64,000 nucleotides of DNA from Acidobacteriota bacterium (lineage in GTDB: Bacteria; Acidobacteriota; UBA6911), in assembly GCA_012719455.1 (NCBI GenBank), contig JAAYAJ010000019.1:273-64272 (forward strand). The letters are read 5' to 3'. Position numbers and translations under genes: made by a program. Below, one piece after another: positions 1 through 46,592 of the stretch (its first letter is position 1; every line of letters starts with the position of its first letter). The notes under the pieces are model-generated. The model was not told where the DNA came from, made no database searches, and was given only the letters and a program-made list of their open reading frames with translations.

Positions 1-624
1 GGACTTTATGAATTTGCTGGGTGCTCGGGAACGGATAGCCAGTGCAATAGTTGGCGTGAACTCTTTGATAAGGGGATTGCTGACGCGAGGAAGGGGCTGG
101 CATCAGGAAAACTTTCGAAAGCAGAAAAGAATAAACTTGAGGCCATTCTGGATTATCTCGGTACTTCCGGAGATGGTAATGACGTACGAATAGCCTTCGG
201 ACCAATTGATGGCGATGCTACGGGAATATCGCCGGGGAAAGATAAAATAAAACTTGATATGGCGAAGATTGAGTCTGATTTTCAGAGGCCCGAAATGGCA
301 AAGTTTGATTTGGCCGTTCACGTAGGAGCTATCGGCGTTCACGAGGCCACCCACAGTCGTGATATGGTTAAGGGGATATTCAATTTCTCTATAAGAAGAG
401 GCTCGCATTTGAACGAAGATTGGGCTGCTTTCAAAGCTGCCGAATTACGTGCCTATGAAATCCAAAGCTATGTATTCAAAGGTCTAAACATTTCCTCTCG
501 AGACGGTCTGTGGAACACTTCTTGGGATGCGGCATACCGAGAAACTCTGCGCAGCATAGGAGTCCAGCAAGGGGCGCAAAGAAGTCTTCATGCGATCAAA
601 AAGAAAATCAATCGCAAGGAGTAA
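1..624 (+). CDS. 3' end of a larger ORF (5' truncated by the window edge). Candidate polymorphic-toxin C-terminal tip with an HExxH zinc-metallopeptidase-like motif.
   Basis: Frame 1 is open from nt 1 to TAA 622-624. HEATH motif at 340-354 in the context AIGVHEATHSRD. AT-rich sequence. Followed 4 nt later by a small exported ORF. Rhs core-end remnants lie downstream in the same locus. Confidence 0.6.
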   Translation, partial: GLYEFAGCSGTDSQCNSWRELFDKGIADARKGLASGKLSKAEKNKLEAILDYLGTSGDGNDVRIAFGPIDGDATGISPGKDKIKLDMAKIESDFQRPEMAKFDLAVHVGAIGVHEATHSRDMVKGIFNFSIRRGSHLNEDWAAFKAAELRAYEIQSYVFKGLNISSRDGLWNTSWDAAYRETLRSIGVQQGAQRSLHAIKKKINRKE

Positions 625-628
625 TGCT

Positions 629-1090
629 ATGCCACACAAACGATCTGCTCCGATTCTTGCCGTGATTGTTTTGCTCGCCGCTATTCCGACTCTAAGCTGC
701 CATCAGGCGGCTGTTTCGGCGAGTATTTCTGACCTCAAATCGTATCCCTTGAATTATGACGGCAAAATTGTTCGAGTCAGTGGTTGGCTAACATCGGAAC
801 ACTTGGGAGTTTTTGTTGAGAGCGAAAATCGCCAAGATGCAATTCGCCTAAGATCGCCGGATGTGGTCGCCACTCGATTACCCGTGCAAAGAGATTACCT
901 TTTCGATAAATTTTGGAAAATGGTGGAAACGAAAATAGACGATTCAGGCTCAAGAGGGATACATGTTGAATTAGATGGATTATTCAGAGTGTTGAAGAAA
1001 GATGGGAAGCCGGCTGAGGAATTTTTTGTCTTTGGTCAATGGCCCGAAGAAATCATCACGCTCCGCATTAGGAAAATCATTAATAAGTAG
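629..1090 (+). CDS. Small exported protein (signal peptide, possible lipoprotein). Candidate immunity protein for the upstream tip.
   Basis: ATG 629 is preceded by AAGGAG (616-621) and lies 4 nt after the upstream stop. N-terminus is MPHKRSAPILAVIVLLAAIPTLSC. No family recognised. Confidence 0.5.
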   Translation: MPHKRSAPILAVIVLLAAIPTLSCHQAAVSASISDLKSYPLNYDGKIVRVSGWLTSEHLGVFVESENRQDAIRLRSPDVVATRLPVQRDYLFDKFWKMVETKIDDSGSRGIHVELDGLFRVLKKDGKPAEEFFVFGQWPEEIITLRIRKIINK

Positions 1091-1128
1091 TTTTAAAAAT
1101 GGGTAGCATGAGCCTTAGGTGAAAAACT

Positions 1129-1692
1129 ATGGCGCTCACTCTCTTACTGGCGTTTCTTCTCATACAGGCGCCAGGACTTGGGGCAATGAACTCATGCCGA
1201 TTAGTAGTCGAGGCTGAAGAAGATGGTTTGCTCGGCAAAGAAGGCAAGCCCTTAGGCCCGGCGGTGTTGTTTAGCGATCCGGTTACGATTCCGGCTTTCC
1301 GGATGCGTTTTGTTGACAGTAAATCGGGGCAGCTTGTAGTTCCCTCAACGATCACCATCGCGTACGTCTGGAAGTGGCTTAAATATCCTTATCCCGAACA
1401 CTCCTGGGGGGTTTGGTCTTCAGCTAGTGATGTCGTTGAATGTTTTGAACCCAGTGCTGAAATACAGGTCCCCGAATTTAAAGTACGTCCACGCGGCTGG
1501 TACGACGGCAAGTATGTTAAGTTTCCATTCTGGAGACGCCCGTCATTTGAGGGGATACACATTGTTCTGACGCTTAACGGCAGTACTGCCCGCTCTACCA
1601 TTTCGCCTAAGCAATCTATGAGGTTGAAGAACAAAACTGCAGTGTTCAGAGTTAACTGCACTGGAGACTCGACCATTGTTGTAGGAAAGTAG
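1129..1692 (+). CDS. Hypothetical secreted protein
   Basis: 187-aa ORF with an AGGTGA Shine-Dalgarno upstream and a hydrophobic N-terminus (MALTLLLAFLLIQAPGLGA). AT-rich like its neighbours. No family recognised. Confidence 0.45.
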   Translation: MALTLLLAFLLIQAPGLGAMNSCRLVVEAEEDGLLGKEGKPLGPAVLFSDPVTIPAFRMRFVDSKSGQLVVPSTITIAYVWKWLKYPYPEHSWGVWSSASDVVECFEPSAEIQVPEFKVRPRGWYDGKYVKFPFWRRPSFEGIHIVLTLNGSTARSTISPKQSMRLKNKTAVFRVNCTGDSTIVVGK

Positions 1693-1717
1693 TGGGGGGG
1701 CCCTTTGTCCGGGGTCG

Positions 1718-2566
1718 ATGCCAGCTAAGTCGAATACCGCGTCGGGGATGCCGGTATGTTTGTGGCGGGAAGGCACAGGATCCCGTAGTTCCGGCAAAGA
1801 ACGGGATGCCGATACGGGGTTGGATTACTTCGGGACGAGGTACTACGGCGGCGCACAGGGGAGATTTCTGACCGTAGATCCCGGTCCGTTTGCAATCGCT
1901 GATCCGCAAAGCTGGAATCGATATTCATACGTTCAAAACAATCCCCTTAAATTTATTGATCCTACTGGCAAGATGTTGGTTCTAAATGGAACTGATGCGG
2001 AGGATCTTGTTGACGAGCTAGAGTTAAAGACAGGCTATAAGCTAAAAAGAAATAAGAAAGGAAAAATCGAGATTGATTCTAGTGTAAAACGGCAAACAAA
2101 GGGAACCTCGAAGGAATTGGCGAATGAATTGAAAGAAGTAATTGATGATAAAAATACGATATCTATTGATGTCGGACATGATCAGGCAAATGTATTTTTC
2201 GACAACTACTCTACCCAAGAGCTCGATATGTCTGATTACAAAGCTGTAAATAATCAATATCCTAGCCTGGCATCTTCCCTGTTGGGCCATGTTCTTGAAG
2301 AATATCAAACAGCGGCTTCTTTGGGAGGTTTTACGTAAACTAATTTTGCCGCTGCGCATAAAGCTGCATTGGCGGTAGAGGGCAAGATAATGTCTGATTA
2401 CACTCGACAAACTGAACAGCCTCGACAAAATCTTCCCGTGGTCAATTCTCATGTGCAATTCAATTACTCCTCAGTACTGTTTGATGTCCTAGTGAAATCA
2501 AAACCTCCTCAGTGGTCTATTGGGCCAATTATCAAATCACAACCTGCCACGAAGGGAAAACCATGA
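1718..2566 (+). pseudogene. Orphan Rhs core-end plus C-terminal toxin-tip cassette, interrupted by an in-frame TAA at 2336-2338
   Basis: GKERDADTGLDYFGTRYYGGAQGRFLTVDP ... NRYSYVQNNPLKFIDPTGK is the Rhs-associated core end with the DPxG demarcation (DPTGK at 1958-1972). The same frame continues past TAA 2336 to TGA 2564-2566. That TGA overlaps the ATG of the next ORF (ATGA). Confidence 0.6.
1791..1846 (+). repeat. Rhs core-end homology block, copy A (direct repeat of 3155-3210)
   Basis: ccggcaaagaacgggatgccgatacggggttggattacttcgggacgaggtac... aligns with 3155-3210 with about 6 mismatches over ~56 nt. It is a local GC-rich patch inside AT-rich DNA. Confidence 0.75.
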
Positions 2567-2976
2567 ATAAACTGGGCGGTTTAGCAGTGATATTGGTGAT
2601 TGTGCTCTGCATCTCTTCATATGGTGGAAACGATAATGATATTTGCTTTGAGGGAAAAATCGAAAAGATGGCTCCTCCCACATTCGCTAGTGGAGTAGTG
2701 CCAGCATATCGTCTTGTGCGCTACCAAGTTATTCGCGTTTTAAAGGGTACATATAGAGAAAGAGAAATTGTTGTTGATCACCTGGTGATGGATGTGGACG
2801 AGCTAGAGAAGTATCATCCCGGCGATATAGTATGCTTGTGTGTCGAAAAGGTACGGCAGCCACTGCAGAGATGGAATGCAAAAGGCATTCGCGATCCCGA
2901 TGAAAGAGTGCAATGGTACTTTATTGATAAGGATCTACACAAAGGCAATTGTAAAGGGCCCAATATTGAAAAATAG
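2563..2976 (+). CDS. Small exported protein. Candidate immunity protein for the orphan tip.
   Basis: ATG 2563 follows GAAGGG (2551-2556) and overlaps the stop of the toxin frame (ATGA). N-terminus is MNKLGGLAVILVIVLCISS. No family recognised. Confidence 0.5.
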   Translation: MNKLGGLAVILVIVLCISSYGGNDNDICFEGKIEKMAPPTFASGVVPAYRLVRYQVIRVLKGTYREREIVVDHLVMDVDELEKYHPGDIVCLCVEKVRQPLQRWNAKGIRDPDERVQWYFIDKDLHKGNCKGPNIEK

Positions 2977-3154
2977 CATGTGATAGATCGATTTGCTCAG
3001 CTCAAGATTAGCTCTTCGAACCGAGTATTGATCTTGATATGGGTATTCGGGGACAGGCTGCGCAATCGCCGAATCCATCTATGATGGGAAGCATATGAGT
3101 ATGATTGATTCAGGCTCATGCTCATCAACAATTCTTTATTAACCTCCCGGTTTA

Positions 3155-3245
3155 CCGGCAAAGAACGGGATGCCGAAACGGGGCTGGATTACTTCAGGGA
3201 GAGGTACCACTCGGGGCACAGGGAAGGTTCATGACGCCGGATTGG
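3155..3245 (+). pseudogene. Frameshifted Rhs core-end remnant (copy B of the repeat)
   Basis: GKERDAETGLDYFRERYH reads in one frame and GAQGRFMTPDW in another. There is no DPxG motif or tip after it. Confidence 0.6.
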
Positions 3246-3289
3246 TCGTTCATGGTCCACGAGGGCGGCAAGCGCCGGGGGATAAGGCC

Positions 3290-3612
3290 TGGGGGCCCTA
3301 TAAAAGCTTTAGAACGGCCTTTCAAAGCGCCTGTCGACGTGCTAACCTTTCGGGCGTTGCGCCGCAAATCCTCCGGCACTGGCTCGCAAGCCGGTTGGTT
3401 ATGCGGGGGCCGATCTTCGGACGGTTCAGGAATTGGGAGGCTGGAAGAGCTTGAATATGGTTCGGCGATATGCGCACCTCAGCCAGGAGCACAAGCGCCA
3501 GGCCATAGAACCGCTTGCCAAGAATTCCCCTGCAGTTTTCACTAATGCAGGGGAATCGGCCAGCGCCCCAGAAACCCGTAACATCAAGGCTGTAAATAGT
3601 TTGGGCCGTTAG
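3290..3612 (+). pseudogene. Decayed tyrosine recombinase (phage integrase family) C-terminal fragment
   Basis: KSFRTAFQSACRRANL...LRHWLASRLVMRG reads in frame 2. After a 1-nt shift near 3406, ADLRTVQELGGWKSLNMVRRYAHLSQEHKRQAIEPL reads in frame 1 (R-H...Y catalytic C-terminus). The N-terminal part is missing. Stop TAG 3610-3612 lies inside tRNA-Lys. Confidence 0.7.
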
Positions 3613-3678
3613 CTCAGTCGGCAGAGCATCTGCCTTTTAAGCAGAGGGTCGCTGGTTCGAGTCCAGCACGGCTCACCA
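3603..3678 (+). tRNA. tRNA-Lys (anticodon UUU), CCA encoded
   Basis: Cloverleaf folded by hand: acceptor GGGCCGT/ACGGCTC, D arm GCTC/GAGC, anticodon stem TCTGC/GCAGA with loop CTTTTAA, T arm GCTGG-TTCGAGT-CCAGC. Confidence 0.93.
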
Positions 3679-3700
3679 ACATCCCCCGGTTTTTCCCGCG

Positions 3701-4393
3701 CTAATTGGAAAGATTCTTCGGCGACTTCCGGTTGAGGATGTCGACCAGGGCCTTCGCCGCGGGTGGCATGCGCACCGCCCCCTTCAGGATGATGTCTTCG
3801 GCATCGAGCTTTTTGCCATAGAGGTTCTTGTTGGCCCCCCCGTCGGAGCGCAGGGTGGAGCCTTCGAGCGAGACGCCCGCAAACAGCCCACGCGAACGGG
3901 AGTAGCTGAGGATTTCGGCATTGAGCACGACATCGGTGGCGGCGCTCGCGGTGCGCCCCTTGGGGCCGGCGGCGGCCGCGGCATCGGCGCCCAGCTTGAC
4001 CTTGCTCTTCAGCACGGACTTGGCCCCCCTGTCGTTCATGATCAGCAGCACGAAATCGGTGGCCTGTCCGCCCAGCTGGAAGCCGATATTCGCCCCCTCG
4101 AGCGCATACATGGCCGGGACCCCCCAGGGGCCGCGGTAGTCGGCGCCGCCGCGACAGATCATGGCGCCCCTGCCGTAGCTGCCGCCCAGGCCGATGGCGA
4201 ATTTCTTCACCGAGGGGAAGACCACCACGCATTCGGCCTTGTCAAGAAGCTCGGCCGGAATGGCATCGGGCACATCGAGAATCTCCTTCATGACGATGCC
4301 GCATTGTTCCAGGCGCTCGCGCTCCTTGCTCTGCGCGGGCAGGAGGGGAACGGTGAACAGGAGCATGAGCACTGCCATCCATGATCGTTTCAT
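3701..4393 (-). CDS. SYLF (Ysc84/DUF500) lipid-binding domain protein, secreted
   Basis: Signal peptide followed by FAIGLGGSYGRG...GFQLGG...LGADAAAAAGPKGR...SYSRSRGLFAGVSLEGS, which is typical of the SYLF domain. Confidence 0.75.
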   Translation of the reverse strand: MKRSWMAVLMLLFTVPLLPAQSKERERLEQCGIVMKEILDVPDAIPAELLDKAECVVVFPSVKKFAIGLGGSYGRGAMICRGGADYRGPWGVPAMYALEGANIGFQLGGQATDFVLLIMNDRGAKSVLKSKVKLGADAAAAAGPKGRTASAATDVVLNAEILSYSRSRGLFAGVSLEGSTLRSDGGANKNLYGKKLDAEDIILKGAVRMPPAAKALVDILNRKSPKNLSN

Positions 4394-4546
4394 TGGTGTT
4401 TCCTCCGGAAAAGATTCAGCGTTTCATTTTCGGAGCCATTATACGCGCCCGGCGGGCGAATGACAAAGAAGAGGACGGCCGGGTGTGCGCGCAGCGGGCA
4501 CGACCGGGGAAAACAGGAGTAAGCAAGATTTTGGCGCTTCCCGACC

Positions 4547-4575
4547 TTGAAATGCGGTGGGAAACATGCCAAAAT
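4547..4575 (+). promoter_or_regulatory. Sigma70-like promoter candidate for tRNA-Glu
   Basis: TTGAAA (4547-4552), a 17-nt spacer, then CAAAAT (4570-4575). The tRNA starts at 4594. Confidence 0.35.
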
Positions 4576-4593
4576 GTCTCGATTTTGGGTCGC

Positions 4594-4670
4594 GTCCCTA
4601 TCGTCTAGTCGGCCTAGGACACCGCGCTTTCAATGCGGCAACACGGGTTCGAATCCCGTTGGGGACGCCA
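4594..4670 (+). tRNA. tRNA-Glu (anticodon UUC), CCA encoded
   Basis: GTCCCTA...TGGGGAC acceptor stem, anticodon stem CCGCG/TGCGG with loop CTTTCAA, T loop GGGTTCGAATCCC. Confidence 0.9.
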
Positions 4671-4745
4671 ACCTCTTTTTTTTCCTTCATGGCGAGTAAG
4701 AAGCCCCGGTGCGCCGCAGGCTCGATCAGCGGGCCATTTCCCGCC

Positions 4746-25704: not shown

Positions 25705-26256
25705 ATGGTTCTACCCGATCACTGGATCCGCTCAATGGCCAAGACCAAACGCATGATTTCCCCCTATGCCGAGCAGGGGCGCCGCAAGGGCAGGATTTCC
25801 TACGGCGCTTCCTCCTACGGGTACGATTTCAGGCTCGCCGACGAATACAAGATCCCCGATTTCGGTGGAATGAAAATCTCCGACCCGAAAAAAATGGACC
25901 GGCTCCCCTTCGAAGATTTCAAGGGGCGCTCGTGCGTCATCCCCCCGAACTCGTTCGTCCTGGGGCGGTCGCTGGAATATTTCCGCATCCCGCGCGACAT
26001 CCTCGTTTTGTGCCAAGGCAAATCCACCTACGCGCGCTGTGGCGTCATCGTCAACGTCACCCCGCTGGAACCGGAATGGGAGGGGTATATCACAGTGTCG
26101 CTGGTCAATGCCTCCCCCGTACCGGCCCGGGTCTATTCGGGGGAGGGGATCGCCCAGTGCGTGTTCCTGCGCGCCGAGAGCGACTGCACGGTCTCCTACG
26201 CCGACCGCAAGGGGAAATATCAGGCGCAGCAGCAGATCCGCCTTGCCCGGGTCTAG
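25705..26256 (+). CDS. dcd: dCTP deaminase
   Basis: ISYGASSYGYDFRL, GKSTYARCG and PLEPEWEGYITV motifs. AAGGAG lies before ATG 25705. Confidence 0.88.
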   Translation: MVLPDHWIRSMAKTKRMISPYAEQGRRKGRISYGASSYGYDFRLADEYKIPDFGGMKISDPKKMDRLPFEDFKGRSCVIPPNSFVLGRSLEYFRIPRDILVLCQGKSTYARCGVIVNVTPLEPEWEGYITVSLVNASPVPARVYSGEGIAQCVFLRAESDCTVSYADRKGKYQAQQQIRLARV

Positions 26257-26265
26257 GGGGACGGG

Positions 26266-26826
26266 ATGGCCGCACCGCGAAACCTAACGATACCGGCGGG
26301 ACTGCTCCTGGCGCTGGCGCTTTGCGCGCCGATTGCCGGCTGCGGCTACCGCATTGCAGGCTCCATGGGGCGCCTGCCGGGGGGGGCGCAGTCGCTGGGA
26401 ATCCCCACCCTGCGCAACCTGACCAATCAGCACGGGATAGAGCAGACACTGACCGCAGCGCTGCTCGAGGAGTTTTCGCTCCGGACGCCGGGGCGGGTCG
26501 ATTCACGCCCGACAGGGACGGACGCCGTGCTGATGGGGGAGATCGTCGAGATCACCTCCACCCCGGTCACGTTCGGAACCGAACAGGCCGGCTCGCGCAC
26601 CTTCGGCACCTCCTTCGTAATCACGGTCCGGTCGAACTTGAGGCTGGTGCGCCCGGACGATTCCGCCGTGCTCTGGCAAAGCACCGACCTGGTCTTCCGG
26701 GAGCGATACGCGCTCAACGCCAGCATCGCCGACTTCTTCTCGGAGGAGAATCCAGCCCTCAAGCGGCTCGCGCGCGCCTTCGCCGCGAGCGTCGCCGGCG
26801 CCGTCCTGGAAAGGGCAAGCCCATGA
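26266..26826 (+). CDS. lptE: LPS-assembly lipoprotein LptE-like
   Basis: Lipobox PIAGCGY. Size and sequence pattern are LptE-like. It sits immediately upstream of holA and overlaps it, as in the E. coli lptE-holA arrangement. Confidence 0.65.
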   Translation: MAAPRNLTIPAGLLLALALCAPIAGCGYRIAGSMGRLPGGAQSLGIPTLRNLTNQHGIEQTLTAALLEEFSLRTPGRVDSRPTGTDAVLMGEIVEITSTPVTFGTEQAGSRTFGTSFVITVRSNLRLVRPDDSAVLWQSTDLVFRERYALNASIADFFSEENPALKRLARAFAASVAGAVLERASP

Positions 26827-27815
26827 TCATCAAGAACCTGGAAGCCCTGGAGGCCGACCTCCGCGCCCGGTTGAGGCCGGTGTACCTCCTGATGGGGCCG
26901 GAAGAACTCCTCTGCCGCGAGGCGTTCGAGATGCTCCGGGAAAAAGTGCTGACCCCGGGGTCCGCCGATTTCGACCTTTCGGAGTTCGAGGGGGGCGCCG
27001 CCACGGCGAGCGAGATCCTTGACGCGGCCAACACCTTTCCGATGATGTCCGCCCGCCGCCTCGTCGTCGTCCACAAAGCCGGCAAGATCCGGGAGGAAGA
27101 CCAGGAGGCGCTCCTTGCCGGGATCGAGACCCTCTCCCCCAAAACCGTCCTGGTCTTGTGGGCGGGGGAACTGGATCGCCGCCGGAAGTTCTACCGGACC
27201 TTCCAACAGCGGCACTGCGTGTGCGAATTCCAGGGCCTCAAGGAGGCGGCGCTGGAGCGCTGGGCGGCGGCACGGCTGCGCGCCGCGGGGTACAAGCTCT
27301 CCCCCGAGGGACTCAAACGGGTAACGGAAATGGTGGGGTCGGACCTGCAGACGCTGGCGGCGGAACTGGACAAGCTCATGCTCTACGCCGGCGGCGCGAA
27401 AACGATCCCGGCGGAGGCGATCGATGGGCTGGTACGCTCGAGCCGCCAGTACACCATCTTCGAACTCACCGACGCCGTGGCGGCCCGGGACCGCAACCGT
27501 GCACTCGTGCTGCTTGCCAGTCTGCTGGGGATGGGGGAGCACCCGCTGGTGGTCGTCACCATGCTGGCGCGCCACTGCCGCCAGATCCTGATCGCCAGGG
27601 AATGCCTCGCGCAACGGGTGCCTCGGCGCGAGATCGCCGCGGAGGCAGGCGTGCCGTTTTTTGTCCTGGACAAGTTCCTGGGGCAGGCGCAACGGGCGGA
27701 AAGGGCCGTCATCGATGAGATGATCCTGCGCCTGGCCGCCATCGACAAGCAACTGAAATCATCGGCCCTGGACGGGCGCATGCTGCTCGAAGGGCTGATC
27801 TGCGCGCTGGTGTGA
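26823..27815 (+). CDS. holA: DNA polymerase III subunit delta
   Basis: VYLLMGPEELL, and an N-terminal domain pattern plus length typical of HolA. Synteny with lptE. Confidence 0.8.
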   Translation: MIIKNLEALEADLRARLRPVYLLMGPEELLCREAFEMLREKVLTPGSADFDLSEFEGGAATASEILDAANTFPMMSARRLVVVHKAGKIREEDQEALLAGIETLSPKTVLVLWAGELDRRRKFYRTFQQRHCVCEFQGLKEAALERWAAARLRAAGYKLSPEGLKRVTEMVGSDLQTLAAELDKLMLYAGGAKTIPAEAIDGLVRSSRQYTIFELTDAVAARDRNRALVLLASLLGMGEHPLVVVTMLARHCRQILIARECLAQRVPRREIAAEAGVPFFVLDKFLGQAQRAERAVIDEMILRLAAIDKQLKSSALDGRMLLEGLICALV

Positions 27816-41775: not shown

Positions 41776-43386
41776 GTGAACAGTGACCCGACACCCGCAC
41801 CCGAACCACCTGGCGGCATTCCGCGCCGGGCGCAGAGCGTCGGCGCCGCCATCGGCATCAGCCGGATCCTGGGCCTGGCGCGCGAGATGGTCCTGGCGCG
41901 CACTTTCGGCGCCGGTTCCTTCACCGACGCCTTTTACATCGCCTACCGGATTCCCAACATGCTGCGCGACCTCTTCGCCGAGGGAGCGCTTTCAGCCGCC
42001 CTGGTACCGACCCTTATCCGGCGCATGACGCAGGGGGGAAGGGAAGAGGGTTGGGTCCTGGTCAACCGTCTCGTCAGCACCCTGCTCCTCGTTCTCGGCG
42101 CCGTCACCCTCGGCATCTATTTCGGGTCCCGGGGCCTGGTCTGGATGCTGGCGGCGGGTTTCCGGGACAACCCCGCGAAATTCGAGCTGACGGCCCAGAT
42201 GACGCGCATCATGTCCCCCTTCCTCCTCTCGGTGTCGCTCGCCTCGGTGGGAATGGCCGCGCTCAACGCCTGCGGCCGGTTTTTTCTTCCGGCGCTGGCG
42301 TCCTCGCTCTTCAACATCTGCTGCATCCTTGCCGCTCTCCTGCTCAGCGACCTGATGCCGGGCTGGGGATTCGACCCCATCGTCTCGATGGCCGTGGGGG
42401 CCGTCCTGGGCGGCGCCGCCCAGTTCCTGGTGATGATCCCGCCCGCGGGCGCGCTCGGTTACCGCTTCCGCCTCGATTTCCGTTTTTCCGACCCGGATCT
42501 CCGTGCCATCGGGCGCCTGGCGCTTCCGGCGGTCCTCGGCCTTTCGGCGACCCAGATCAGCATCGTCGTCGACAGCCAGCTCGCCTCTCTTTACGGCGAC
42601 GGCCCCGTGTCGTGGCTCAGCTACGGCTTCCGGCTGATGCAGCTCCCGATCGGCCTCATCGGGGTGGCGGTGGCGACCGCCACCATGACGACGGTTTCGG
42701 AGTACGCCGCACTCGGCATGCGCGACCGCATCGGGCCCGCCCTCGGTTCCGGACTGAGGCTGTCGGCCTGCCTCATCTTTCCCGCCATGGTCGGCCTCCT
42801 CCTGTTCCGCGGCGAAATAGTCCAGCTCCTGTTCCAACGGGGGGCGTTCCTGGAAGCGGACACCCTGTGGACCGGCCGCATCGTCGGGCTGTACACGCTG
42901 GGCCTGTTTGCGTATTCAGCGGTGAAGATCCTCACGCCCGCCTTTTATGCGCTCAATAATACCAGGACGCCGCTCCGCGCGAGTCTCTCGGCGGTCGCGG
43001 CCAAGATCCTGCTGAGTTTCCTGCTCATCCAGCCGCTCGGCTTTTTGGGGCTGCCGCTGGCGACCTCGCTCTCCTCGTGGCTCCAGTTCGCGCTGCTGCG
43101 GCGCCCCCTGGCCCGCTCCCTGTCCCCGGCGACAGCCGCTCACGGCAAAGGCGCCTACCTCCGTATCGCCCTGGCCTCCCTGATGATGGGGGCGATCGCA
43201 CTGGCCGTCCACCGGGGGGCGGAAATGATGCTGCCCGGTCCGGGCGCCCTTTCTTTGCTTTTTCGCCTCGGGGCGGCCATAATGGCCGCACTGGCGGCGA
43301 TCGTGCCGCTGCTTTGGCTGTTCAGGGTGGAGGAGGCCCGGGAACTGGCCCGCCTGGCGGGCATTTTCAGGCGCAAGGGGCGATGA
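41776..43386 (+). CDS. murJ: Lipid II flippase MurJ
   Basis: [48 protein letters not shown]. The GTG 41776 start is a guess (an alternative upstream start is at 41734). Confidence 0.88.
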
Positions 43387-44270
43387 AGCGAAATTTGGCC
43401 GGCGAATTCGCGGCTTACCTGCGGGTGGAAAAGGGGCTGGCGGCCAACACCGTCGCCGCCTACGGGCGCGACCTCCGGAAGTTGTACGCCTTTGCCGCCG
43501 ATTGCGGCCGGGACCCGGAGGAGCTCGGGCCCGGAGACCTGGCGCGCTGGATGGAGCGCCTGCGGGACGGGGGGCTCGGCCCGCGCTCCATCGCCCGCGC
43601 GTGCAATGCCGTCCGCGGCTTTTACCGCTTCCTCCTGGGGGACAGGATCATCGACTCGGACCCCACCGAACACCTCGAAACCCCGCGAGCGCGCAAGCCC
43701 CTCCCCCGGTTCCTCAACCGCGCGGAGGTGGAGGCGTTGCTCGAGGCCCCGGATACCGGGACCCCCTCGGGAAGCCGCAACCGGGCGATGCTCGAAACCC
43801 TTTACGCCTCCGGCCTGCGCGTCAGTGAACTGGTCCGGCTCGAACTCGGCCGGATCGATTTCGACCTGGGCGTCGTCGGCTGCATGGGCAAAGGGAACAA
43901 GGAGCGGCTGGTCCCGATCGGGGCGGCGGCGCTCGGCCGGCTCCGGGAGTACGTGCGCCTCCATCGGCCCGTGATCCTCGGCGAGCGCCGCAGCCCCTAC
44001 GTCTTTGTCACCCGCCGCGGAGGCGCCATGACACGGCAGGGCTTCTGGAAGATCGTGCGGGAGTGCGGCCGGCGGGCCGGGATCCGAAAACCCCTCTCCC
44101 CCCACATGCTGCGGCATAGCTTCGCCACCCACCTGCTCGAAAACGGGGCCGATCTCCGTTCGGTCCAGATCATGCTGGGGCACGCGGACATTTCGACGAC
44201 GCAGATCTACACCCACATCACGCGCGAGCGCCTGAAACGGATTTACCGGCAATACCACCCAAGAGCCTGA
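43383..44270 (+). CDS. xerD: Site-specific tyrosine recombinase XerD (XerC/D family)
   Basis: [69 protein letters not shown]. Confidence 0.88.
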
Positions 44271-46592
44271 TCAGGTGCGCAACCTCAGGAAGAGGGCGCA
44301 TCCCGCGGCCCCGAAGAGAAGGTTGGGGGCCCATGCCGCGAGCGCGGGAATCAGGACCCCGTAGGCGCCCATGGCCTCAAACACCCCGGACACCCCCCAG
44401 TAGGCGATGGCGACGGCAACGCTCAAGCCGATGCCCAAGAAGGCCCCCTTCTTCCCCGTGGAGAAGGAAAACGGCACCCCCACGAACGCCATCACCAAAC
44501 AGCTCAGCGGAAAAGCCAACTTTTTGTGCAGTTCCACCTGCAGGTTCATGGCGTTGTAGCCCGCCCGCTTCAGGTAGCCGATGTACCGGGCCAGTTCGGA
44601 GTAGGTCAGTTTCGAGGACTCCCGGGGGGAGAAGATCTCCCTTTTGAAATAGGAGGCCCTTTCCGGGAAACGCATCGTCGCCGTCCGGATCGTCTCGAAG
44701 CCGGAGTCCCCGGCGTCGTAATCACGGCTCCAGCCGTCGGTCAGGGTCCAGAAGCCGTCGGGGCCGATCCGGGCGTTCGCCGCGTGGATCCGGCGCCGGA
44801 GGCGGATCGCGGCAAAATCCACATCGTAGACATTGAGGTCCACGAAGGCATTCTTGTTTTCGTCGAAGTACTCGTAGTTGTATATCCTCCCCCCCTGGCC
44901 GAGGATCCATTTCCGCTCCAGCCGCCGGGCGCTCCGCGCCGGCTTGTTCAGGATGATGTTCCTCAGCCCGTCCTGCCGCTCGTTGGCGTAGGGGAGGATG
45001 TAATCCTGCAGCACGAACAGGCCGGCCGACAGCGCGGCGGCGGCCGCAAGGATCGGCACCGCCAGCCGGTACAGGCTCCAGCCGCCGGCCTTGAGCGCGG
45101 TGATCTCCGAGTGCTTTTCCAGGATCCCGAAATGGATCAGGATCCCGAGCAGCACCGACACCGGGACGGCGAACATCAGGATCTGCGGCGTGAGAAAGAA
45201 AAGGTAATCGAGCAGCGAAAGGACCGGGATCCCGTTCTTGATGACGTCGTCGATCAGTTCGAACAGGGTCAGAAGGAGGAAGAGCGCGGTGCAGGAGACC
45301 AGGGACCAGAAGAAGAAGGCCCAAAAACCTCGAAGCATGTGCAGGTCCAGGATGCGCGGAAGGAGGCGGCGCAGCAAGCGGCCGCATCCCTGCAGGATCC
45401 CCAGGTCCATCTTCCCGAGCCGGTCGAGGAGGGATCCCGGACCGGGGCGCCGGAAGAGGGAAAACCGGGGAAGCCCCGCTCCCCAGTGGGTGAGCCCGAA
45501 CCTCTTTTCAACCCTGTCGAGCATCGCCCACCCGGCCAGGGTCAGGACGATGTTTGCTCCCCAGGCTCCCAGCCACGGTGGGATCCTGCCGACGCCGGCC
45601 AGCCGAAGCCCGTTGAAAAAGAGCATGTAAAAGAGGATCACCATCAGCAGGCTGAGGGCCAGACCGAAGGTGCGCCCCGATCTCGGGTTGCTGACCCCGA
45701 GTGCGAGACCCAAAAGAGCAAATGGTATTACCGTGAATGGAAGCGAAATTCGGCGATTTATCTCAAGTATTTCTTTAATATTTGTCGCCGTGCCTCCCGC
45801 CAGGCCGCGCCGCAGCAGGTCGAGGCTGCCCATCTCCTCGACCCGCGAGGGTCGGACCCCGGCCGGGGCGTGGCGCGCGATTTCCATAGATATATCTGTT
45901 GATTTAAAATAACTTACACTGTCCCTATCAGGGTGCTCATGGTCGGTCGCATAGCTGACACCCCGTTTGAGGTGCAGCTGCAGAGCATGCTTGTTGGAAT
46001 CGGGCATCCAGAGCACGCTCCTGGCGATGATGATACGCGGGGCCCGGGGATCGGAGCTGTCGGCCAGGAAAATGCCGCTCCCGCGCTTTCGATCCGCGCT
46101 CACGTCATCGAGGTAAATGACCAGTTTAGGGATCTCCTCGTTGAACACCCGGGGCTGGATCCGCATGACTCCGGCCGACAGCTCGATCTCCTCGACCACC
46201 TGGCGGCGCCAATCGTTGGTGCGCGGCATCACCCAGAGCGAAAGAACGGCGGTGGCGGCGCCCACCAGCCCGCCCAAGAGCAGGATGAAACCCAGCAGGC
46301 GGCGGAGCGGAACCCCGCAGGCGCGCAGCGCCAGGATTTGGTTTTCACCCGACAGGCCGCTCAAACCGACCAGCACCCCGACCAGAAAGGAAAGCGGGAG
46401 GGAAAAGATGAGAATGGCCGGCAGGATCGATGCCGCAATCCTGACGAGAACCCAGAGGGAGGCGCTACGCGCCAGCAGCAGTTGGGCCAGCGACCCGAAT
46501 TCGTTGGCGGTGACCACGAAGGTCAGAACTGCCAGTGCGATCACAAACGGCGGGGCAATTGCGTAAAAGAGCAGCTTGTGGATCCGGTTCAT
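44271..46592 (-). CDS. Fused LptF-LptG LPS export permease (single 773-aa ORF)
   Basis: Two tandem LptF/LptG-type halves. Each begins with an (I)LD.Y/H.LR.F-like segment and carries ENQILALRACGV or HSEITALKAGGW. Confidence 0.8.
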   Translation of the reverse strand: MNRIHKLLFYAIAPPFVIALAVLTFVVTANEFGSLAQLLLARSASLWVLVRIAASILPAILIFSLPLSFLVGVLVGLSGLSGENQILALRACGVPLRRLLGFILLLGGLVGAATAVLSLWVMPRTNDWRRQVVEEIELSAGVMRIQPRVFNEEIPKLVIYLDDVSADRKRGSGIFLADSSDPRAPRIIIARSVLWMPDSNKHALQLHLKRGVSYATDHEHPDRDSVSYFKSTDISMEIARHAPAGVRPSRVEEMGSLDLLRRGLAGGTATNIKEILEINRRISLPFTVIPFALLGLALGVSNPRSGRTFGLALSLLMVILFYMLFFNGLRLAGVGRIPPWLGAWGANIVLTLAGWAMLDRVEKRFGLTHWGAGLPRFSLFRRPGPGSLLDRLGKMDLGILQGCGRLLRRLLPRILDLHMLRGFWAFFFWSLVSCTALFLLLTLFELIDDVIKNGIPVLSLLDYLFFLTPQILMFAVPVSVLLGILIHFGILEKHSEITALKAGGWSLYRLAVPILAAAAALSAGLFVLQDYILPYANERQDGLRNIILNKPARSARRLERKWILGQGGRIYNYEYFDENKNAFVDLNVYDVDFAAIRLRRRIHAANARIGPDGFWTLTDGWSRDYDAGDSGFETIRTATMRFPERASYFKREIFSPRESSKLTYSELARYIGYLKRAGYNAMNLQVELHKKLAFPLSCLVMAFVGVPFSFSTGKKGAFLGIGLSVAVAIAYWGVSGVFEAMGAYGVLIPALAAWAPNLLFGAAGCALFLRLRT

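Follow-up and report, generated by a model that had tools for sequence, protein, structure and literature searches.

Gene content of the low-GC block

The stretch of DNA analyzed here, referred to as the window, comprises 64,000 nt of a contig from an uncultured Acidobacteriota bacterium (GenBank assembly GCA_012719455.1, contig JAAYAJ010000019.1). Its first 3678 nt carry the C-terminal end (tip) of an Rhs protein, displaced Rhs modules (orphans), small open reading frames (ORFs) for exported proteins, a piece of a tyrosine-recombinase gene and a tRNA-Lys gene (Table 1). The guanine-plus-cytosine (GC) content of nt 1-3100 is 0.457 (45.7%) vs. 0.650 (65.0%) for nt 3679-64000, close to the 40-45% against about 65% that an earlier note on this DNA had judged by eye, and no other 3.1-kb window within the 64 kb falls below 0.613. 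A sliding profile shows the step, with backbone level reached from ~nt 3150 to 3700. Backbone genes in the window include glyS, an lptF-lptG fusion, murJ, holA, lpd, and nuoD; the encoded GlyS shares 94% identity with its counterpart in an uncultured Acidobacteriota metagenome-assembled genome.

The patches of higher GC within the block correspond to two copies of an Rhs core end, at nt 1693-1972 (0.55) and nt 3119-3242 (0.53), as had been proposed from the sequence; ORF 1129-1692 has a GC content of 0.50. Both copies exceed the 32.5-bit cut-off of the Rhs-associated core profile TIGR03696 (Rhs_assc_core). The copy in orphan module 2 scores 63.8 bits (E 1.5e-17, residues 25-84), and for the one in the orphan 3 remnant, the score is 36.2 bits over profile positions 16-50 of 76 once the frame is corrected. 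The GKERD...DPxG segments taken for Rhs core by the earlier note thus do match the core profile. Together the copies form a 66-nt direct repeat (1781-1846 and 3145-3210, 85% identity), and the motif GKERDxxTGLDYF occurs at nt 1793 and nt 3157 only when the whole window is read in six frames.

The ORFs at 629-1090, 1129-1692, and 2563-2976 all begin with charged and then hydrophobic residues, in line with the signal-like N-termini previously remarked upon; these signal peptides were read by eye, directly from the sequence. Neither of the two tips nor any of the three encoded proteins (the 153-aa imm1, the 187-aa product of ORF 1129-1692, and imm2) has a Pfam or NCBIfam match, and the tip and immunity families are unrecognized, as the earlier note had held. 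That note counted three C-terminal domains, whereas the window holds two tip domains and the remnant lacks a tip. Taken as a whole, nt 1-3678 very likely form the distal end of a chromosomal Rhs polymorphic-toxin array of an uncultured Acidobacteriota bacterium, of the kind described under the C-terminal displacement model for orphan Rhs modules of Enterobacteria (Poole et al., 2011; PMC3150448).

Table 1. Features of the low-GC block and its right-hand border (window coordinates).
Feature	Position	Strand	Description
Tip 1	1..624	+	Predicted C-terminal toxin domain; Rhs core lies upstream of the window
imm1	629..1090	+	153-aa exported protein with signal peptide and lipobox-like TLSC; predicted tip-1 immunity
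Orphan immunity gene	1129..1692	+	187-aa exported protein; predicted cognate toxin absent from the window
Orphan module 2	1718..2338	+	Short leader, core end (~nt 1790-1969, to DPTG), first 121 codons of tip 2, premature TAA at 2336-2338
Tip 2, distal part	2339..2566	+	75 codons beyond the TAA, same frame as 1718-2338; aligns with the C-terminal 75 residues of P0009
imm2	2563..2976	+	137-aa exported protein, intact; predicted tip-2 cognate immunity gene
Orphan module 3 remnant	3119..3242	+	Start codon, leader MLINNSLLTSRFT, ~30 core-end codons, 1-nt deletion; tip and immunity gene deleted
Integrase 3' debris	3243..3612	+	Tyrosine-recombinase C-terminal third, one frameshift, stop inside the tRNA
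tRNA-Lys (anticodon TTT)	3603..3678	+	Found with ARAGORN; right-hand border of the low-GC block

Tip 1 and its exported partner

Exact-protein look-ups of the 153-aa and 187-aa genes led to 37 metagenome contigs, one of them from a biogas fermenter, and the eight that were fetched (L001-L008) are 98.8-100% identical to the window. Three of these (L001, L007, L008) extend ORF 1-624 upstream into an Rhs core end, adding up to 284 nt. The extension contains FTGKERDAETGLDYFGARYYSGAQGRF followed by NNPLKFTDPTG/LYEF (the slash marks the core/tip boundary), and reads PFGRMLGSGVGGRGSCYPDPPDANYDSRAPQKFTGKERDAETGLDYFGARYYSGAQGRF...NNPLKFTDPTG/LYEFAGCSG. It scores 71.1 bits on TIGR03696, with a match that ends at the residue encoded by window nt 1-3, which is the G of the DPTG/L boundary. 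Because these identical contigs run upstream into a core end, they show that ORF 1-624, as the earlier note had claimed for the frame entering at nt 1, is an Rhs C-terminal tip; it follows a DPTG/L autoproteolysis boundary at which cleavage is predicted.

Whether tip 1 is the terminal tip of a main Rhs gene or is itself a displaced orphan had to be weighed separately. The YD-repeat body upstream of nt 1 was not recovered, as all 37 contigs break at about one place, within 284 nt of the window's start. When Joint Genome Institute (JGI) metagenomes were scanned for an exact match to window nt 1-40, the 2.9-kb contig already known (L008) was the sole result, and among Genome Taxonomy Database (GTDB) species representatives, 82 pattern matches to the tip-1 family were found of which none was confirmed, the tip being absent there. 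With the main gene unseen, these results count against a terminal position, as tip 1 could be an orphan with a longer core stretch. The window would then be a graveyard of orphan cassettes lacking a delivery-competent Rhs shell, and no toxin would be deployed. Elsewhere, an 85%-identical tip 1 is indeed a 318-aa orphan (P0001 in L104) with the same leader as orphan 2, and P0003 is part of an orphan array that follows a full-length Rhs gene. Over its 94 codons, however, the upstream extension remains in frame and shows neither a start codon nor an orphan leader, and its PFGRMLGSG...SCYPDPPD...APQKFTGKERD segment, which lies well beyond the points at which orphans 2 and 3 start, matches the full-length core (LPFGRAL...QKFTGKERD in P0015, L100). 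A shared breakpoint is also what a repeated Rhs core would produce, because assemblers break at such repeats. Since the in-frame core homology reaches beyond the orphan starts and matches full-length relatives, we favor tip 1 as the terminal tip of a main Rhs gene and consider an orphan origin unlikely.

Tip 1 contains an HExxH motif that the earlier note missed (HEATH, nt 340-354, encoding H114, E115, and H118), and a glutamate follows 30 residues downstream (E148, nt 442-444). A word-indexed search with tip 1 found seven relatives only. An exhaustive profile search of 1.84 billion representative proteins (E up to 1e-3) found 257 clusters, with the domain invariably at the C-terminal end. Six long members (983-2281 aa) were scanned, of which five possess Pfam RHS_repeat (P0015, P0042, P0147, P0032, and P0122) and the sixth has TIG and BACON domains instead; YD/RHS repeats were also found in the Rhs gene of L010. 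When the family profile was searched against the PDB, the region just before the tip matched the plugs of YenC2, TccC3, Tse5, and other solved Rhs, TcC, and teneurin proteins; this Rhs core-end part was the only one to match, the tip proper having no PDB match. The HE..H signature is present in nearly every family member that covers the site, and in an alignment of 124 relatives, conservation reaches 90% at four columns only, H114, E115, H118, and E148.

The structure of tip 1 was predicted with AlphaFold2 from these 124 sequences (predicted local distance difference test, pLDDT, 96.1; predicted template modeling score, pTM, 0.92). This model replaced a first one from eight sequences (pLDDT 59), whose Foldseek matches were meaningless. 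In it, an N-terminal helical hairpin is followed by three strands (62-66, 75-79, and 82-85) and a short helix; next come the helices that bear HExxH (104-123) and the Glu (137-162), and a long helix closes the domain. The candidate ligands lie on two consecutive helices behind the three-stranded sheet. Motif, conservation, and model point to a zincin-like toxin domain of an uncatalogued family, probably of the gluzincin type, for which zinc binding and catalysis are predicted. The earlier note had recognized none of the C-terminal domains; this holds as far as family matches are concerned, but tip 1 is recognizable as a zincin-like HExxH...E domain.

imm1 starts 4 nt after the tip-1 stop, behind an AAGGAG ribosome-binding site, and its charged, then hydrophobic N-terminus ends in TLSC. 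An imm1 homolog was found directly after tip-1 relatives in five other diverged loci. One, with 67% identity, is part of an orphan array that follows a 1693-aa Rhs gene (L010), and another belongs to an orphan behind an integrase C-terminus, with 88% nucleotide identity across tip 1 and imm1 (L104). Homologs with 48% and 41% identity follow a 1721-aa Rhs gene (L015/L016, NCBI assembly GCA_040961015.1), and one with 41% identity follows the 285-aa orphan tip-1 homolog P0006 within an array of small genes (L009). In the fifth locus, on a 6.9-Mb contig, the homolog is found at profile E 3e-11 after the 1681-aa Rhs protein P0042, whose tip is only ~28% identical (L102). Because adjacency and co-divergence recur in five loci, imm1 is the predicted cognate immunity protein of tip 1. 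The earlier proposal that the downstream ORFs are immunity partners is thus supported by their co-variation with tips in other loci.

As the imm1 signal peptide implies a toxin that acts outside the cytoplasmic membrane, the signal peptide and the co-variation together suggest a periplasmic site of tip-1 action. The same signal-peptide logic has been verified experimentally for the HExxH effector VgrG2b and its immunity protein PA0261 (PMC6899460). The indirect nature of this argument, which draws on signal peptides read by eye, and the imperfect lipoboxes of imm1 and imm2 speak against placing the site of action with confidence. In the proposed mechanism, tip 1 would be freed from the Rhs shell as a zinc metallopeptidase and would kill rival cells by cleaving an envelope or periplasmic target, and imm1 would neutralize it, presumably by binding in the periplasm.

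Several searches weigh against the peptidase assignment. Foldseek returned no significant PDB match for the tip-1 model (best E 0.66); in favor of the assignment, several zincins are among its weak PDB matches (snapalysin, AsaP1 with TMq 0.41, selecase, ADAM22, and Zmp1). Tip 1 of the window has no Pfam match at E up to 10, and no member of the 124 reaches any Pfam metallopeptidase or toxin threshold (including those of Tox-MPTase2-5, Peptidase_M91, and DUF4157). Sub-threshold Pfam matches among these relatives were to Peptidase_M91 (best E 0.0031, five members), M13, and reprolysin, those to Peptidase_M91 speaking for a peptidase. As no fold or family match is significant, it is motif and topology that carry the name metallopeptidase. 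A confident model with no significant Pfam or PDB neighbor would also suit an HExxH...E domain that does not kill as a protease, being instead another zinc hydrolase (of peptidoglycan or lipid), a binding module, or a eukaryote-aimed effector, with the exported partner serving as an accessory protein or chaperone. Rhs-like TcC tips, which are among the PDB matches, can target eukaryotes, and for the VgrG2b metallopeptidase no peptidoglycan hydrolase activity was found and the target is unresolved (PMC6899460). Catalysis in the tip-1 family is nevertheless favored by the catalytic Glu of the HExxH motif, which at least 90% of the 124 aligned sequences retain. Moreover, bacterial toxin-immunity systems are marked by the combination found here, namely a small exported partner that is always adjacent to the tip and diverges with it, alongside orphan modules and orphan immunity genes (PMC3150448, PMC3482391). 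We regard the non-protease alternatives as very unlikely, more so than an orphan origin of tip 1, and tip 1 is best explained as a putative periplasm-acting zincin-like peptidase.

Orphan modules, cassette turnover, and mobile setting

The gap between imm1 and ORF 1129-1692 is 38 nt, which leaves no room for a toxin remnant. The 187-aa protein has 39 homologs. A 48%-identical one (L100) lies directly after a 1495-aa Rhs protein with an unrelated tip that lacks HExxH, and in other contigs the homolog stands alone or is the first gene of a small-gene array beside an integrase. ORF 1129-1692 is read as an orphan immunity gene whose putative toxin is absent from the window. On another contig (L099:7156-12888), an array of small unannotated genes, all on one strand and headed by a distant homolog of the 187-aa protein, follows immediately after a 206-aa integrase fragment. 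We take this arrangement to resemble recombinase-associated arrays of orphan immunity genes.

Of the core, orphan 2 has kept no more than the final ~60 residues, and the remnant near nt 3119 is a truncated orphan; both agree with the earlier view of displaced modules that keep a short core stretch. The orphan 2 core runs to NNPLKFIDPTGK, with the DPTG/K core/tip boundary at ~nt 1961-1975, and its leader, AKSNTASGMPVCL, also heads the orphan tip-1 copies P0001 and P0004 of other assemblies, showing that one junction carries different tips. "ORF 1973-2566", listed as a single frame in the earlier note, is not open, as it is interrupted by the in-frame TAA. Among 5.8 billion proteins, tip 2 has a single homolog, P0009 (60% identity, 96% coverage), whose frame has no stop where this TAA lies. 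Since P0009 is continuous there and similarity persists for 75 codons beyond, tip 2 of the window is a nonsense pseudogene of a putative toxin, inactivated recently.

imm2 is joined to the tip-2 frame by an ATGA overlap and is 41% identical (E 7e-36) to the gene that likewise overlaps the end of P0009 in L014. It is thus identified, by position and homology, as the cognate immunity gene of tip 2, with a predicted protective function. Tip 2 has no Pfam, PDB, or tip-1 profile match, and a PDB search with P0009 likewise found no toxin domain. A relationship of tip 2 to the HExxH tips of L010 and L011 was considered and set aside as unproven, the pairwise E being 0.096 and the tip-1 hidden Markov model missing tip 2.

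In two sister contigs (L005 and L006) an insertion sequence (IS) carrying DUF772 and DDE_Tnp_1 interrupts the orphan 2 core end at window nt 1846. Another (L001) follows the window with 99.5% identity as far as nt 3242 and then continues into an intact 263-aa orphan and a DUF4288 gene. The orphan and IS differences between the window and its sister contigs thus make the locus visibly polymorphic within the population. In L001:3401-4502, the intact orphan 3 encodes a 263-aa protein whose tip has no Pfam match and is followed by a DUF4288 protein, a position that makes DUF4288 a candidate immunity family. In the window, the deletion that truncated this third orphan also removed the 5' two-thirds of the integrase gene; as it runs straight into that gene, orphan 3 and the integrase were contiguous. 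The array as a whole may be viewed as a record of cassette turnover, with an immunity gene lacking its toxin, a nonsense-killed tip beside an intact immunity gene, and a truncated orphan. The retained immunity genes would still protect against neighbors with matching toxins.

When stitched across its frameshift, the integrase debris matches PF00589 with 53.4 bits (profile positions 108-171 of 172; 12.6 bits for the separate pieces), and its frame stops at nt 3612, inside tRNA-Lys. The earlier note's recombinase C-terminus without an N-terminal part is thereby borne out. What is left is a frameshifted C-terminal third, not a functional integrase. Two findings count against a tRNA-targeted island. 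The debris borders the tRNA on its 5' side, an atypical geometry for an island, as the 3' end is the usual one. In addition, a search for attachment (att) repeats of the tRNA-Lys sequence in nt 1-4700 found only chance-length matches, the other island end lying off the window. For both reasons, the tRNA is a positional border and not a demonstrated integration site. A scan for promoters and terminators, which gave seven promoter-like and nine terminator-like sites at most ~2 standard deviations above the shuffle means, was uninformative.

These two findings would fit a native locus, in which low GC would merely reflect the AT-richness of fast-turnover tip and immunity cassettes, and the integrase fragment and the tRNA would be unrelated neighbors. 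Rhs tips are, as a general rule, AT-rich relative to their cores. On the other hand, the deletion shows the third orphan and the integrase to have been adjacent, GC returns to backbone level within ~500 nt of the tRNA, and relatives of the Rhs cassette occur beside integrase, excisionase, relaxase, or prophage genes (L015, L102, L104). A native locus is therefore improbable. The horizontal acquisition proposed in the earlier note agrees with the 20-point GC step, with the integrase debris beside the tRNA, and with relatives on prophage-like elements and elements resembling integrative and conjugative elements, and the array was probably delivered on an integrative element that has since decayed beside tRNA-Lys.

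Analyses of full-length relatives bear on the route of delivery. Four of them (P0015, P0042, P0147, and P0122) have Sec-type N-terminal signal peptides. Upstream of the Rhs gene, L010, L015/L016, and L102 all encode a BACON-domain protein together with a conserved ~255-aa secreted protein, the latter 46-52% identical from locus to locus; a further conserved protein, of 262-284 aa, is common to L015/L016 and L102 (Rhs genes with their upstream sets at L010:3-6644, L015:6488-15166, and L102:7061-15046). This upstream set may be a distinct Rhs delivery module. No PAAR, VgrG, or type VI secretion system (T6SS) gene was found within 10 kb of the Rhs genes in L010, L015, and L102. The lack of a T6SS-type delivery marker in the full-length relatives or their 10-kb flanks is a further point against the proposed account of the array, and, with the Sec signals, leaves a T6SS link unsupported. 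A Sec route, listed as "T2SS" (type II secretion system), is given for RHS toxins by Zhang et al. (2012; PMC3482391).

The surroundings of several relatives contain genes of mobile elements. A TrwC relaxase, a RepB primase, a VirB11-like ATPase, HTH_17 excisionase-like genes, and two integrases lie near the Rhs cassette in L015:1-20700 (NCBI GCA_040961015.1), and terminase, portal, and HNH genes lie near the Rhs/immunity cassette in L102:15900-25046. In L104:3-330 and 535-1957 (NCBI GCA_016294925.1), the 85%-identical tip-1 orphan and its imm1 homolog are ~200 nt downstream of an integrase C-terminus. Mobile-element and prophage genes beside the relatives support carriage on a mobile element. 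A bolder reading, in which tip 1 would found a structurally distinct branch of zincin-like toxins with a periplasmic envelope target, a new exported immunity fold, and a Sec-dependent, T6SS-independent Rhs delivery riding Acidobacteriota integrative elements, is put forward as a doubtful possibility, to which we give slightly more credence than to a native locus. If true, it would provide a contact-dependent or secreted Rhs delivery route new for diderm bacteria.

Several genes outside the low-GC block were also noted. A Ysc84/SYLF-domain lipoprotein gene (3701-4393, minus strand) lies between tRNA-Lys and tRNA-Glu(TTC) (4594-4670, plus strand). The 773-aa ORF at 44271-46592 (minus strand) shows an LptF match in residues 4-358 and an LptG match in residues 414-770, indicating an LptF-LptG fusion. 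The gene at 43077-44270 (plus strand) encodes a housekeeping XerD-type tyrosine recombinase (TIGR02225, 361 bits) unrelated to the low-GC block. A weak nucleotide match of the L104 integrase to window nt 44134-44215 falls in this XerD gene and was set aside. The 627-aa ORF at 25932-27815 (plus strand) matches holA over residues 317-625 only, which points to a start placed too far upstream or to an N-terminal extension.

Relation to known systems

A locus of this kind is already well known, being an Rhs main/orphan array with cassette turnover (PMC3150448). As it is a textbook case, it leaves the understanding of such systems unchanged. The intact toxin and the three immunity genes, as predicted here, belong to uncatalogued families. 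The value of the locus lies in a defined toxin-immunity pair, with an uncatalogued family of 257 clusters, a co-varying exported partner, a confident model, and four candidate catalytic residues. In addition, the window and its sister contigs clearly record how cassettes have turned over naturally within an uncultured Acidobacteriota population, with orphans that are intact, nonsense-killed, deletion-truncated, or IS-disrupted, and with an orphan immunity gene. Sec-signal Rhs proteins with BACON neighbors on mobile elements raise the question of how such proteins exit a diderm cell.

The array shares with the Rhs arrays of Enterobacteria (PMC3150448) a core ending in DPxG with a variable, AT-rich tip behind it, an immunity gene directly 3' of each tip, downstream orphan modules with short core homology only, and gain, loss, and decay of cassettes at the population level, as seen between the window and L001, L005, and L006. 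It differs from them in its uncultured Acidobacteriota host, in relatives that have Sec signals and the BACON/secreted-protein set instead of PAAR, VgrG, or a T6SS, and in immunity proteins that all appear to be exported.

With regard to the toxin, zincin-like tips have been described on RHS proteins, among them Tox-MPTase1-5, Tox-HopH1/NleD (M91), and the PVC-metallopeptidase with HExxH...E (Zhang et al., 2012; PMC3482391), and Salmonella Dublin has an Rhs-M91 effector, SED_RS06335 (PMC13556075). Tip 1 resembles the polymorphic-toxin zincins as a ~200-aa domain at the C-terminus of RHS-repeat proteins, with a HExxH helix and a Glu on the next helix behind a three-stranded sheet, and some of these tips are likewise listed as travelling by the Sec ("T2SS") route. 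Unlike them, the tip-1 family stays below all Pfam thresholds (its best match being the one to Peptidase_M91 mentioned above), and the tip-1 model has no PDB match at E below 0.6. Zhang et al. list no immunity family, whereas tip 1 has a conserved partner family.

A close parallel for the toxin-immunity pair is the VgrG2b C-terminal metallopeptidase (DUF4157) of Pseudomonas aeruginosa with its immunity protein PA0261, whose function depends on its signal peptide (Wood et al., 2019; PMC6899460). In both systems an HExxH effector is invariably followed by a small ORF for a signal-peptide-bearing immunity protein, implying a periplasmic site of action, and the effector domain is swapped by recombination at the 3' end of the carrier gene. 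The carrier differs, being Rhs here and not VgrG or PAAR; tip 1 has no DUF4157 match, and the predicted toxin and immunity protein show no detectable sequence similarity to their VgrG2b and PA0261 counterparts.

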